From the NCBI RefSeq assembly GCF_056746865.1, contig NZ_CM163382.1: 64,000 bases of DNA; one strand, 5' to 3'. A model generated the notes under the pieces. It was not told the DNA's origin, made no database searches, and saw only the letters and a list, made by a program, of their open reading frames with translations. Shown piece by piece: positions 47,473 to 64,000 of the stretch; the stretch's first letter is position 1, and the number at the start of each line of letters is the position of its first letter. The position numbers and the translations under genes were made by a program.

Positions 47473-48021
47473 TCACTGAGCTGTAATCAATGTACAGCGC
47501 TGTACCGGACGATGGGTAATGGCGATCACAACCGGTAACCCCAGAGACAATGCGACTGTTTTTAACGCAACATACTGGCCAGATGTATCACCCCGGACGA
47601 CCTGAAAACGCTTTTCCACCCGGCATTGTCCGCCAGCGCTTATCACCTGCCAAGTCTGTTGTAGTAAATCCACCAGTTGTGAACATTCTTCATCAACTGT
47701 CACACTGGCTCGCGGATGGCAGAAAAGCTCCTGGCTGAACAGCAACAGGCATCGTATTGTTGCTCCTCCATGTTGTTCCCGCAACCAGCGTAATACCACC
47801 GGCGAGGATGGGCTGGCCGTGTGATTACGCTCAGTAATACGTTCGTGCACCTGTCGGTAAAAGGAAGTACAGAATGCATGAATCTGTTGCCCGTTGATGT
47901 TTCCTTCTGCCGAATAGAGCGTGAAGTGAAATGCCAACAGATTTGGCCAGTGGTCCACCGCCTGCTGAACAAAACGCCGGATGTCTCCCGGCTCTGAAAT
48001 TAAGGCTTTGGTTATTTGCAC
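47473..48021 (-). CDS. hypothetical protein, probably a divergent Gp2/YagK-YfjJ-family member
   Basis: Weak motif-level resemblance to the three YagK-like proteins in this window; immediately downstream of alpA-like gene. Confidence 0.35.
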   Translation of the reverse strand: MQITKALISEPGDIRRFVQQAVDHWPNLLAFHFTLYSAEGNINGQQIHAFCTSFYRQVHERITERNHTASPSSPVVLRWLREQHGGATIRCLLLFSQELFCHPRASVTVDEECSQLVDLLQQTWQVISAGGQCRVEKRFQVVRGDTSGQYVALKTVALSLGLPVVIAITHRPVQRCTLITAQ

Positions 48022-48286
48022 GAAATGTTCCTTTTCAAACCCTGTTGAATTTTGTTAAGCCAGTGCAGACACGCAGGAAAGCACGCCAGCACCGGTGTAA
48101 TGCCAGTTATAATCAATAAGAATGGAATGACGAATCAGTCAGGAAGAGCTACAACCTGCTGGCTGACTGGAGAATGTCTGCAAGAAGATGAACGTAAATG
48201 TCGCCAGCACCAGGGACAGGGCTGATTTCCACAATACCAACGCTGGTATTTTGCACATTGCCAGCGTACCGGCATTACAACACGTT

Positions 48287-48511
48287 TCATGCTGCTGCCC
48301 CTCGTGATGCCTCGATTCGATGCTGCATCCACTGCTCCACTTCACTTTTGTACCAGCGGCTGCTGCGCCCCAGTTTGATGGGTTTAGGGAAATGGCCTTC
48401 ACTGATCAGCTTGTAAAACCATTTGTCGGTCATACCAGTGAAGCTGGTGATGTAGTTCATGTCGATCAGGGGATCGTCGGCACGCAGCAATACGCTGTCG
48501 TGACCTGTCAT
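48287..48511 (-). CDS. AlpA-family phage/island transcriptional regulator
   Basis: MTGHDSVLLRADDPLIDMNYITSFTGMTDKWFYKLISEGHFPKPIKLGRSSRWYKSEVEQWM... matches the AlpA HTH family. Confidence 0.7.
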   Translation of the reverse strand: MTGHDSVLLRADDPLIDMNYITSFTGMTDKWFYKLISEGHFPKPIKLGRSSRWYKSEVEQWMQHRIEASRGAAA

Positions 48512-48591
48512 TGAGGTCAACATGGTCAGAATGTCCTCTGTGAGATTTATGAATGTTGGGCAAATGCGGGTGAATCTGCTGAGCTGAGCTT

Positions 48592-49197
48592 TCAGAGCTG
48601 GCCTGCTACGGGATACCAGGGATTACCGGCGAGGTAACGGGCTTCCGGATCGCGCACACCACGACGATCGCGGGCGAAATCACTGAACGCCCAGATAAGG
48701 TCCTGAAACAGGGCTTCGCAGTCCGGTGACCGGCGATCCAGTACCACATCCCGGGTGATCTGTTTCTGGTACGGTGCCGCTTCACCCGGTGACGCGAAGC
48801 CCAGTACGTTGCTCCAGGCATCCAGAATCAGCCGGTCCAGTTCAGGGCCATCGAAATACTCCTGTCTGACGCATAACACCACGTGGTATTCCGGTTTTTC
48901 AGGATGACGGGTCAGGAGCCAGCAGAGGTCACGTCCGGGTGTTGCATTCATCAGCGCACTGACGGTTTCGATAAAATCCATACCGAACCAGATTTTTCTG
49001 TCACTGAAGGCGTTGTCATGTTCCCACGGCAGACGAAGCAGGATCCGCCGTACCCGGGAGCAGGACTGTTCACGCAGCGCACGGTTGAGAACACCGATGA
49101 TTTTGTTCTGATAAGACGGCCAGAAGGGCGCCAGGCTATAGTCGAAATGAGGGATACCATTCATAAGATATGCTCCATATGGAAACGCACGACGCAT
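48592..49197 (-). CDS. inovirus Gp2-like (YagK/YfjJ family) protein
   Basis: Family-typical features in ...RRILLRLPWEHDNAF...YHVVLCVRQEYF... Confidence 0.55.
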   Translation of the reverse strand: MRRAFPYGAYLMNGIPHFDYSLAPFWPSYQNKIIGVLNRALREQSCSRVRRILLRLPWEHDNAFSDRKIWFGMDFIETVSALMNATPGRDLCWLLTRHPEKPEYHVVLCVRQEYFDGPELDRLILDAWSNVLGFASPGEAAPYQKQITRDVVLDRRSPDCEALFQDLIWAFSDFARDRRGVRDPEARYLAGNPWYPVAGQL

Positions 49198-49447
49198 CCC
49201 CGCCAGCGAAAGACGAGCGTATGGTGAAACTGAAGGCGTCGTGTACTGAGATTGTTGATGTGATAACCGTGGAACCGGGGATGGCAGATGTCGTATGCCA
49301 GGACAGTCAGGAGACCAGACAGGTGTAAAATTCCTGAGGTGGGTTTAAGGTGAATGATCTCCGTTGACTTCAGTTCACATCATTAATCAGGGCGGTAGAT
49401 TTTTACCGACGGAGTGTTTCCAGGAGCGGAGGCTCAGGCCTTAAGCT

Positions 49448-50014
49448 TCAGAAGTGAGGCTTACGAGGACGCCCTGCAGCAGGACGCTCAGGAACTTCAC
49501 TGCAGCCGTAGGCACACAGCCCGTCTTTTTGCTCTTCTTTCGCCAGATAATGCAGGGCACCGCGAATATTATCGATGCTTTCAGGATCGTTGTGGCGCAC
49601 AGGAATGTTGATGTTGTATGTATAATGCGGCTGATATGTACAGCGGTGTGCCGAACCGCTGTTATGCGTAATAGACTGCCAGCATTCCGTAATCCGCTCC
49701 GCAAAGGGATATATTTTTTTAACCCTCTGACGATCGAGCCAGAAAACCGCATGCGCATGAAAACCATGATCAGCCGTCCATTCAATCACCCAGAAGAAAC
49801 CAACGATATTTTCAAATTGTTCCACCTGCTCCAGCAGCATACGCAACTGCAATTCAAGCCAGCGATGATCAGGTTGTAAGAAATCAGGCGTATCTTTCCT
49901 GTAGAAGAAATCCATGCGTAAGGCCCGCAGACGGGAATAGCGTGCGACCAACTGATTGATGTGATTGTCAAGTAAAGCGGTAAAAAACCAGTTTGGTGTG
50001 TAAGATTTAGGCAT
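49448..50014 (-). CDS. inovirus Gp2-like (YagK/YfjJ family) protein
   Basis: ...LRMDFFYRKD...HGFHAHAVFWLD... family motifs. Confidence 0.55.
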   Translation of the reverse strand: MPKSYTPNWFFTALLDNHINQLVARYSRLRALRMDFFYRKDTPDFLQPDHRWLELQLRMLLEQVEQFENIVGFFWVIEWTADHGFHAHAVFWLDRQRVKKIYPFAERITECWQSITHNSGSAHRCTYQPHYTYNINIPVRHNDPESIDNIRGALHYLAKEEQKDGLCAYGCSEVPERPAAGRPRKPHF

Positions 50015-62754: not shown

Positions 62755-62845
62755 TGCTGTTTCCCTGAAAGTGCAACCCTGACTCACGTCTGTACCAGTC
62801 CCCGGGCATTCTTCCATTCATTTACTTTTTATAAGGAATCATCTC

Positions 62846-63331
62846 ATGACAACCTTTTCGCATAGCTCCACCACGCCTTCTGTTTCCGTAACCACTGCAC
62901 CAGGGAATAACCAGTCTCAACTGGTTGCCACTCCCGTCCCTGATGAACAGCGCATCAGTTTCTGGCCGCAACATTTTGGCCTCATTCCACAGTGGGTGAC
63001 CCTGGAGCCCCGTGTCTTCGGCTGGATGGACCGTCTTTGCGAAGACTACTGCGGTGGTATCTGGAATCTGTACACCCTGAACAACGGTGGGGCATTTATG
63101 GTACCCGAACCGGATGACGATGATGACGAAACATGGGTACTGTTCAATGCCATGAACGGCAACCGCGCTGAAATGAGCCCGGAAGCCGCCGGCATTGCCG
63201 CCTGTCTGATGGCGTACAGTCATCACGCCTGTCGTACAGAGAATTATGCCATGACGGTCCATTATTATCGGTTGCGGGATTACGCCCTGCAGCATCCGGA
63301 ATGCAACGCCATTATGCGCATCATCGACTGA
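62846..63331 (+). CDS. antirestriction protein (ArdB/KlcA-like, YfjX/YeeS? family)
   Basis: 161 aa with acidic run PEPDDDDDETW and conserved ...CGGIWNLYTLNNGGAFMVP... segment. Confidence 0.6.
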   Translation: MTTFSHSSTTPSVSVTTAPGNNQSQLVATPVPDEQRISFWPQHFGLIPQWVTLEPRVFGWMDRLCEDYCGGIWNLYTLNNGGAFMVPEPDDDDDETWVLFNAMNGNRAEMSPEAAGIAACLMAYSHHACRTENYAMTVHYYRLRDYALQHPECNAIMRIID

Positions 63332-63346
63332 ATGGAGAGAAGCACA

Positions 63347-63823
63347 ATGCAACAGCTTTCCTTTCTGCCCGGAGAGATGACGCCCGGCGAGCGCAGCCTC
63401 ATTCTGCGGGCCCTGAAAACCCTGGACCGCCATCTTCATGAACCCGGTGTGGCCTTCACCTCCACGCATGCGGCACGGGAATGGCTGATTCTGAACATGG
63501 CGGGACTGGAGCGGGAAGAGTTCCGGGTACTGTATCTGAACAACCAGAATCAGCTGATTGCCGGTGAAACCCTCTTCACAGGCACCATCAACCGCACGGA
63601 AGTCCATCCCCGGGAGGTAATTAAACGTGCCCTGTACCACAATGCCGCTGCCGTGATACTGGCACACAACCACCCGTCCGGTGAAGTCACCCCCAGTAAG
63701 GCAGATCGCCTTATCACGGAACGCCTGGTACAGGCACTGGCCCTGGTGGATATCCGGGTACCGGACCATCTGATAGTTGGTGGCAACCAGGTTTTCTCCT
63801 TTGCGGAACACGGTCTGCTTTAA
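63347..63823 (+). CDS. RadC-like JAB-domain protein (YeeS/YfjY/YkfG-like)
   Basis: JAMM motif ...ILAHNHPSGEVTPSKADRLIT... Confidence 0.8.
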   Translation: MQQLSFLPGEMTPGERSLILRALKTLDRHLHEPGVAFTSTHAAREWLILNMAGLEREEFRVLYLNNQNQLIAGETLFTGTINRTEVHPREVIKRALYHNAAAVILAHNHPSGEVTPSKADRLITERLVQALALVDIRVPDHLIVGGNQVFSFAEHGLL

Positions 63824-63891
63824 CCCGTCACCGCCACAACCATATCACACCTGTTTTCACTTTTATCTTCTGTCTTCAGAGGTATCCCACT

Positions 63892-64000
63892 ATGAAAATC
63901 ATCACCCGTGGCGAAGCCATGCGTATTCACCGTCAGCATCCGGCATCCCGTCTTTTTCCGTTCTGTACCGGCAAATACCGCTGGCACGGCAGTGCTGAAG
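63892..64000 (+). CDS. YeeT/YkfH-like DUF987 protein, 5-prime part (runs off window)
   Basis: MKIITRGEAMRIHRQHPASRLFPFCTGKYRWHGSAE... after RBS CAGAGG. Confidence 0.5.
   Translation, partial: MKIITRGEAMRIHRQHPASRLFPFCTGKYRWHGSAE

Follow-up and report, generated by a model that had tools for sequence, protein, structure and literature searches.

A CP4-like module at the end of a 64-kb sequence, very probably the distal backbone of a tRNA-Phe genomic island

A 64,000-nucleotide stretch of contig NZ_CM163382.1 (NCBI RefSeq assembly GCF_056746865.1), referred to here as the window, ended in a block of about 17 kb (47,056 bp–64,000 bp) in which a minus-strand arm encoding AlpA, YfjI and Gp2/YagK-type proteins was followed by a plus-strand arm encoding GTPase, DUF905, DUF932, antirestriction, RadC-like and DUF987 proteins. 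A first-pass annotation, made from the sequence alone, had described the block as the backbone of a CP4-type island with its integrase and attachment site outside the window. This description was borne out by the gene families, by the collinearity of the right arm with the CP4-6, CP4-57 and CP4-44 elements of Escherichia coli K-12 and by the island boundaries of close relatives. We regard the block as very probably the distal backbone, or yee/CP4-like module, of a large composite island of the GI-pheV/GI-pheU kind. This assessment takes in the families detected, the synteny and the relatives' island boundaries; the functions discussed below are inferred from what the literature says of these families.

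Genes, spacers and insertion sequences of the block

The left edge of the conserved block was a ProQ/FinO fragment, the 3′ part of a pseudogene on the plus strand (47,056 bp–47,454 bp; open reading frame (ORF) 47,152 bp–47,454 bp) that matched Pfam PF04352 (E = 3e-17). Homology with the E. coli genome W2-5 broke at this point (47,054 bp/47,056 bp), and the ProQ/FinO gene of relatives is frameshifted in the RefSeq annotation. The left arm followed on the minus strand and, along its direction of transcription, encoded Gp2, YfjI, a spacer, a YagK-type protein, ORF201, AlpA and ORF182, which is not the order alpA-yfjI-yfjJ.

The Gp2 gene (54,400 bp–55,131 bp) belonged to the inovirus Gp2 and YagK-YfjJ family and had an intact HYH motif (PF11726, E = 7e-37; PF23343, E = 6e-9). 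Its product matched PHROG replication-initiation families and was 30% identical to YfjJ and to YagK. In their PF23343 and PHROG matches the Gp2/YagK proteins resembled rolling-circle replication initiators. YfjI (51,611 bp–53,215 bp) was a DUF3987 P-loop protein (PF13148, E = 2e-73) with the Walker A motif AEPGAGKT; it was 30% identical to K-12 YfjI and matched PHROG 2373, 'DNA helicase' (E = 9e-42). As DUF3987 proteins have been proposed to be superfamily 6 (SF6) or MCM-like replicative helicases (PMC4889955), YfjI is a candidate replicative helicase. Its 534-codon frame was intact and free of indels, and the substitutions that separated it from two relatives were spread evenly across codon positions.

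The YagK/YfjJ-type gene (49,448 bp–50,014 bp) had an H-A-H motif and matched PF11726 with 28.3 bits, against a cutoff of 25.8, as well as PF23343. ORF201 (48,592 bp–49,197 bp; called as ORF190, 48,592 bp–49,164 bp, by RefSeq) had no Pfam, NCBIfam or PHROG match; alignment with the Gp2/YagK profile by hhalign (83% probability, E = 8.8e-6, 166 columns) revealed it to be a remote paralog with EYH in place of the HYH motif. Its named relatives were nearly all from E. coli. AlpA (48,287 bp–48,523 bp) was a helix-turn-helix protein of the excisionase/regulator type (PF05930, E = 2e-10; a weak match to TIGR01764, 'excise') and was not matched to K-12 AlpA by blastp at E ≤ 1e-3.

ORF182 (47,473 bp–48,021 bp) had no match in the local Pfam library and no conserved HUH-like histidine motif. 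A confident placement in the Gp2 family by profile comparison failed, as the hhalign match to the Gp2 profile stayed below threshold (E = 0.07). A relative that was 92% identical to it matched PF11726 at E = 0.003, and some relatives have been named 'inovirus Gp2 family' by NCBI; it is probably a degenerate, divergent Gp2/YagK-like protein. All of its homologs (P0001–P0120) carried a precomputed match to PF27752, a family absent from the local Pfam library. Of the four Gp2/YagK genes proposed in the first-pass annotation, one was therefore strongly assigned, one marginally and one by profile comparison only, and the fourth stayed sub-threshold. The rest of its inventory (AlpA, DUF3987, GTPase, DUF905, DUF932, antirestriction, RadC and YeeT-like genes) agreed with the Pfam, NCBIfam and PHROG results.

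Between the two arms were two convergent hypothetical genes that overlapped by 4 bp. The first (58,081 bp–58,890 bp, plus strand) encoded a helical protein of 269 amino acids which itself had no Pfam match. The family was diverse, with RepB-RCR_reg or ribbon-helix-helix domains in 7 of 24 remote relatives, and a C-terminal ribbon-helix-helix domain is probable in this member too. A Foldseek search of its AlphaFold2 model (predicted local distance difference test score (pLDDT) 73) against the PDB returned nothing at E ≤ 0.001. The second gene (58,887 bp–59,819 bp, minus strand) encoded 310 amino acids with no family match. A Pfam domain was found in none of the 68 homolog clusters of this protein, its AlphaFold2 model was unusable (pLDDT 49) and its named relatives were almost all from Escherichia or other Enterobacteriaceae.

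The right arm, on the plus strand, began with a GTPase of the YfjP/YkfA/YeeP type (59,926 bp–60,810 bp; MMR_HSR1, E = 4.5e-15) in which the G1 motif GKSGTGKS and a G3 motif were present; it was 36% identical to YfjP, 35% to YkfA and 31% to the YeeP fragment. The next gene (60,929 bp–61,606 bp) encoded a protein of 225 amino acids that is hypothetical in the annotation of relatives and had no match in Pfam, NCBIfam, PADLOC or the PHROGs. It was followed by DUF905 of the YkfF type (61,636 bp–61,845 bp; PF06006, E = 1e-27; 59% identical to YkfF) and DUF932 of the YfjQ/YafZ type (61,936 bp–62,754 bp; PF06067, E = 2e-51; 76% identical to both YfjQ and YafZ). The antirestriction gene (62,846 bp–63,331 bp; PF03230, E = 4e-37) was of the YafX/YfjX (LfgA) type, which is named KlcA in PMC6174562, and was 71% identical to YafX and 67% to YfjX. 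The RadC-like JAB-domain gene (63,347 bp–63,823 bp; PF04002, E = 1e-45), of the YeeS/YkfG/YfjY (LfgB) type, was 97% identical to YeeS. The last gene, DUF987 of the YeeT type (63,892 bp–64,000 bp; PF06174, E = 2e-20; 94% identical to YeeT), was cut after its first 36 codons by the end of the window and is present at full length in relatives. PADLOC identified no defence system among the hypothetical genes of the block, and its sole match was a weak LeoBC-like one to the C-terminus of the GTPase.

Two AT-rich spacers (34–37% GC, 1.6–1.75 kb) each lay upstream of a Gp2-type gene. One (50,015 bp–51,610 bp; 1.6 kb, 34% GC), between YfjI and the YagK-type gene, contained no ORF longer than 51 amino acids; the other (55,132 bp–58,080 bp, IS5 excluded) preceded the Gp2 gene with the intact HYH motif. 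Homologs of the two were found in 1572 and 1878, respectively, of 5426 complete E. coli genomes. No annotated feature lay beneath the matches to 50,015 bp–51,610 bp in any of the 30 records listed, and the records listed for 55,132 bp–58,080 bp had either no annotation there or only 'hypothetical protein' or IS1. The first spacer was 78–92% identical between copies and had many indels, compared with 95–97% identity for the flanking genes; as it evolves faster than they do, it gave no indication of a hidden gene or a structured RNA. Iterons and tandem repeats were sought in it and none were found. The two spacers had no similarity to one another, no shared element, no tblastx match to the K-12 CP4 loci and no Rfam match, and a promoter scan did not rise above the shuffled expectation. 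They look like ordinary fast-evolving island spacers; a role as an origin or in regulation is possible.

Two insertion sequences (IS) were present. The first was a frameshifted remnant of an IS110-family transposase (53,649 bp–54,246 bp, plus strand) in the spacer between YfjI and Gp2, recognised by IS110-type motifs in its translation and annotated as a RefSeq pseudogene in 100%-identical loci; it was absent from more distant copies of the module (L008 and L009). The second was an IS5 of 1195 bp (56,083 bp–57,277 bp, plus strand) that encoded a DDE_Tnp_1 domain and was 99.5–99.6% identical to K-12 IS5 copies. It was flanked by a 4-bp target duplication, TTAG, at 56,079 bp–56,082 bp and 57,278 bp–57,281 bp, and the corresponding site was uninterrupted in W2-5 (L001). 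This is a clean, recent simple insertion. Both elements had been said to interrupt the island; as both lie in spacers, no backbone ORF is broken.

Closest relatives, attachment site and neighbouring cargo

Analysis of the whole 64-kb window revealed no tRNA or tmRNA gene and no Rfam family at the gathering threshold; at E ≤ 1, a search of 47 kb–64 kb returned only three sub-threshold chance matches. Five P4-type integrase queries (K-12 IntA and IntF, and three from relatives) had zero tblastn matches in the 64 kb, and neither the 19-bp pheV-derived repeat nor its 11-bp core had a copy there. The earlier statement that no integrase or tRNA was visible thus held over the full length. Both marks of a CP4 or GI-pheV island that the window lacked were found in relatives: a P4-type integrase beside a tRNA gene in a near-identical relative (pheV and integrase in A27), and a flanking tRNA-derived direct repeat in W2-5, A27 and EC17CM12. 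Two further marks were found within the window itself, namely the AlpA, YfjI (DUF3987) and YfjJ/YagK (Gp2) module, which was recognised by Pfam and hhalign and was about 30% identical to K-12 and on the opposite strand, and the collinear GTPase-DUF932-antirestriction-RadC-DUF987 arm.

At least 80% of the 17 kb was present in 155 of the 5426 complete E. coli genomes, and some part of it in 5130. The best matches were 98.3–99.4% identical. Four complete genomes (W2-5, A27, EC17CM12 and CM2) carried the block at 98–99.98% identity; in W2-5 the identity was 99.0% over 47,056 bp–56,082 bp and 99.985% over the last 6.7 kb (57,277 bp–64,000 bp). The divergent two-arm layout was conserved: it recurred in relatives at either site, pheV or pheU, and also in copies that are more distant. 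Neither the whole window nor IS5 at this site was found in any complete genome of the collection.

In all four of these genomes the DUF987 gene was followed directly by the CbeA/CbtA pair, as the first-pass annotation had expected, and then by DUF5983, DUF957 and DUF4942, with the start of CbeA approximately 190 bp past the point that matches window position 64,000. Next, in W2-5, A27 and EC17CM12, came ParD/ParE, a perfect 19-bp copy of the 3′-end of tRNA-Phe (pheV/pheU), which represents attR, and a tyrosine integrase. The repeat, between ParE and the integrase, was ATTCCGAGTCCGGGCACCA, in the context TTTC-ATTCCGAGTCCGGGCACCA in these three genomes; it lay approximately 3.5 kb beyond the point that matches window position 64,000 and agreed with the published GI-pheV attR type (PMC11537424). 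At the other end, A27 encoded the pheV gene with its own P4-type integrase approximately 50 kb to the left of the backbone, and sugar-utilisation, restriction-modification, pap-remnant and resistance genes occupied the cargo region between that integrase and the backbone. The backbone, the repeat and an integrase stub were also present in EC17CM12, where they abutted cadC, which is the pheU site. The block is placed at the distal end of a GI-pheV/GI-pheU island because of these boundaries: cbeA/cbtA, ParDE and the 19-bp repeat downstream in relatives, pheV and an integrase far to the left in A27, and the pheU location in EC17CM12.

The integrase past attR was intact in W2-5 and A27, truncated in EC17CM12 and 43% identical to the pheV-adjacent integrase. 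It was considered as the cognate integrase of the backbone and rejected, as the tRNA-derived repeat separates it from ParE; because of this position of the repeat, the integrase is taken to start a second, tandem island remnant. Since the same attR and integrase junction occurred at pheV and at pheU, it appears to be a conserved tandem-island junction that travels with the backbone. In the locus records, attR followed by this second integrase, intact or truncated, was located at 35,971 bp–37,452 bp (L001), 32,930 bp–34,408 bp (L002) and 39,529 bp–39,904 bp (L010).

Alignment of the far left of the window (1 bp–12,401 bp) with the W2-5 island showed 99.7% identity to a segment that encodes pap regulator remnants, an ISCR2 fragment, floR, tet(A)/tetR, aph(6)-Id, aph(3'')-Ib and sul2. 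As 1 bp–12,401 bp matches the resistance segment of the W2-5 island, a multidrug-resistance module is embedded in the same island. Window positions 11,332 bp–12,401 bp and 45,925 bp–47,054 bp both aligned to 13,928 bp–15,055 bp of the W2-5 locus (L001), with 99.7% and 94.7% identity respectively, and they therefore form a direct repeat of approximately 1.1 kb that brackets a 33.5-kb block. This block encoded a 1291-amino-acid SPATE-type S6 peptidase, an fdrA/carbamate-kinase cluster and a YadA-like adhesin, according to the RefSeq annotation of near-identical loci, the ORFs and Pfam. W2-5 and A27 had a single copy of the repeat and lacked the 33.5-kb block, which suggests that the block may have been gained or lost by homologous recombination. 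A further copy of part of the island was found on pNDM5_LS003 (L007; accession: NZ_OP290546.1), an IncI-gamma/K1 conjugative NDM-5 plasmid of which positions 1 bp–21,400 bp held approximately 20 kb of the island at 99% identity. Besides dgt, the pap regulators and floR, this segment contained all of the left arm and both hypothetical genes; it stopped just before the GTPase gene.

Comparison with known elements and alternative origins

The yee/CP4-like module of pheV, pheU and selC islands has already been published and is common in E. coli. GI-pheV has been described as modular: its types are defined by the integrase, its attR repeats measure 19 bp or 23 bp, and one of its modules, the 'yee module', is related to CP4-44 (Nhu et al. 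2024, PMC11537424). The proteins listed for pheU, pheV and selC islands include a YeeP-type GTPase, YeeS, YeeT, YkfF, YafZ, KlcA, the Gp2 family, YfjI and ProQ/FinO (Gut Pathog 2018, PMC6174562), which is the same protein set as that of the window backbone. The label 'prophage-like' is historical, and yee/CP4-like module of GI-pheV/pheU (PMC11537424) is the accurate name. The window block was 98–99.98% identical to the distal part of islands whose other end is formed by pheV and a P4-type integrase (A27); these islands close with the 19-bp pheV-derived repeat (W2-5, A27 and EC17CM12). The copy described here differed from these relatives in having a private IS5 at 56,083 bp, in having lost the IS1/transketolase-fragment segment beside ProQ and in adjoining the extra 33.5-kb SPATE/fdrA/YadA block.

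The right arm was collinear with K-12 CP4-6, CP4-57 and CP4-44 at 59–97% protein identity, with the GTPase at only 36%, and similarity at the DNA level was limited to DUF932 through DUF987. The left arm had only gene families in common with the K-12 elements, at about 30% identity. The block had been said to follow the order known from CP4 elements; the comparison of order and content sustained this for the left-to-right map and the collinear right arm; the left arm, however, shared families only and lay on the opposite strand to its CP4-57 counterpart. CP4-57 (ssrA-intA-alpA-yfjI-yfjJ ... yfjP-yfjQ ... yfjX-yfjY-ypjJ-yfjZ-ypjF) shared its families and map order with the window, and its right arm was collinear and on the same strand. 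However, both arms of CP4-57 run in one direction, whereas the AlpA/YfjI/Gp2 arm of the window was inverted relative to the right arm, with AlpA downstream of YfjI and four Gp2-type paralogs where CP4-57 encodes one. The distance from YfjI to the next Gp2-type gene was 1.6 kb in the window and 150 bp in CP4-57, and the YfjI, Gp2 and GTPase proteins were only 30–36% identical. Between yfjI-yfjJ and yfjP, CP4-57 encodes AbpAB and RnlAB in place of the two convergent hypothetical genes, and its attachment site is ssrA, compared with tRNA-Phe for a pheV/pheU-type island. The closest K-12 proteins were those of CP4-44 (yeeP-flu-yeeR-yeeS-yeeT-cbeA-cbtA-yeeW), as the identities to YeeS (97%) and YeeT (94%) show, although flu/Ag43 and yeeR were absent from the window block. 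In CP4-6 (ykfA-yafZ-...-ykfF-yafX-ykfG-ykfH-yafW-ykfI) DUF932, antirestriction, RadC and DUF987 occur in the same order, but DUF905 follows DUF932 rather than preceding it. The uncharacterised 225-amino-acid gene between the GTPase and DUF905 set the window apart from both CP4-44 and CP4-6.

Several observations weigh against assigning the block to the distal backbone of such an island. The integrase, tRNA, attR and toxin-antitoxin genes all lie outside the window, and it is from relatives that their presence in this genome is extrapolated. Compared with CP4-57, the left arm is inverted and only about 30% identical, and its AlpA is downstream of YfjI, not upstream. Alignments showed the His-x-His motif to be missing in two of the four Gp2-type paralogs. 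The ratio of nonsynonymous to synonymous substitution rates (dN/dS) of YfjI was approximately 0.6, compared with 0.13–0.28 in the neighbouring Gp2-type genes, a pattern that could reflect relaxed or diversifying selection.

The opposite orientation of the arms, unlike CP4-57, and their unequal similarity to K-12 (30% for the left arm and 59–97% for the right) would also be expected if they were leftovers of two islands joined head to head by an IS-mediated rearrangement, and IS5, IS110 and IS1 scars do lie around the junctions. The second integrase after attR in relatives shows, moreover, that tandem accretion occurs at the site. However, the same divergent arrangement, in which the central spacer and both hypothetical genes are included, was present in 155 genomes, at pheV and at pheU, and the central spacer had homologs in 1878 of 5426 genomes. 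We consider such an origin unlikely; even if the arms were once joined in this way, the junction is old, they now form one module and the identity of the block is unchanged.

Conjugative transfer offers another account, in which the plus-strand arm is a captured leading-region establishment module and the block belongs to an integrative mobilisable element. The anti-defence islands in plasmid leading regions typically have antirestriction genes beside toxin-antitoxin genes (PMC11541004), DUF932-antirestriction-RadC-DUF987 blocks occur on E. coli plasmids at 90–95% identity, a ProQ/FinO-type gene fragment adjoins the block and approximately 20 kb of this island is carried by an IncI-gamma/K1 conjugative plasmid. 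Because it includes the pap regulators and floR, the plasmid copy appears to have been captured secondarily from a chromosomal island. Protein-family searches with Pfam, NCBIfam and the PHROGs brought up neither a relaxase nor a coupling protein nor any type IV secretion family from the region's ORFs, and in relatives a tRNA-derived repeat and a P4-type integrase mark the end of the block. Taken together, these points make a mobilisable element very improbable. Still less credible is a degraded true prophage or a phage satellite, whether P4-like or a phage-inducible chromosomal island (PICI), that was once packaged into capsids. P4-like satellites and Gram-negative PICIs do encode AlpA with a helicase-type replication protein, the left arm has PHROG replication matches and the K-12 relatives bear the name 'cryptic prophage CP4'. 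No capsid, tail, terminase (including the small subunit), lysis, packaging or size-redirection family of the Psu, Sid or Delta type was detected, however, when all ORFs were searched with Pfam and ten ORFs with the PHROGs. The island of the relatives exceeds 70 kb and is full of metabolic, resistance and virulence cargo, and the published view is that of a modular genomic island (PMC11537424).

Proposed working of the module

For the distal backbone of a GI-pheV/GI-pheU-type island, published work on the families suggests the following division of labour. A P4-type tyrosine integrase, encoded outside the window, would integrate such islands into the 3′-end of tRNA-Phe and recombine the tRNA-derived repeats. 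The AlpA-type protein may act as an activator or excisionase; in a CP4-type element, excision depends on AlpA and is induced by it (PMC5148205). The minus-strand arm, with its SF6-type helicase YfjI and Rep-like Gp2/YagK proteins, may be what is left of a module that replicated the excised circle. Establishment and anti-restriction may be the role of the plus-strand arm, with its GTPase, DUF905, DUF932, antirestriction protein, RadC/JAB protease and DUF987. Protease activity is known for YfjY (LfgB), the K-12 counterpart of the RadC-type protein (PMC10846083), and the set of antirestriction, RadC/JAB and partner genes resembles the islands for anti-defence and establishment that plasmids carry in their leading regions, in which antirestriction next to toxin-antitoxin genes is typical (PMC11541004). 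Stabilisation of the island would fall to the CbtA/CbeA and ParDE pairs, which lie beyond the window; CbtA/CbeA homologs occur in CP4-44, CP4-6 and CP4-57 (PMC5371832).

In the present copy the module is tens of kb from the integrase, with resistance and virulence cargo in front of it. Because of this distance, the divergent arms and other rearrangement relative to CP4-57, the IS5 and IS110 remnant gained in spacers, the truncated ProQ and the apparently relaxed constraint on YfjI, this copy is most likely a decayed passenger backbone that would move only when the island as a whole does, or when islands recombine with one another. It is improbable that the minus-strand arm is instead a working, self-contained replication or mobilisation unit made up of the SF6-type helicase YfjI and four Rep-like Gp2/YagK paralogs, two of which have an intact His-x-His motif. 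Two of the Gp2-type paralogs each have a conserved AT-rich non-coding leader of more than 1 kb upstream, present in approximately 30–35% of complete E. coli genomes. If such a unit did exist, one of the long spacers would be an origin or nick site, or would encode an unannotated long RNA, and pheV/pheU islands would have an unrecognised means to replicate after excision.

The identification of the module bears on how the remainder of the window is annotated. The floR, tet(A), strAB and sul2 genes, together with the SPATE and YadA-like adhesin genes, sit inside a tRNA-Phe island, the end of which is predicted approximately 3.5 kb past the window, at the 19-bp attR. The backbone itself, complete or partial, occurs in most E. 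coli genomes.

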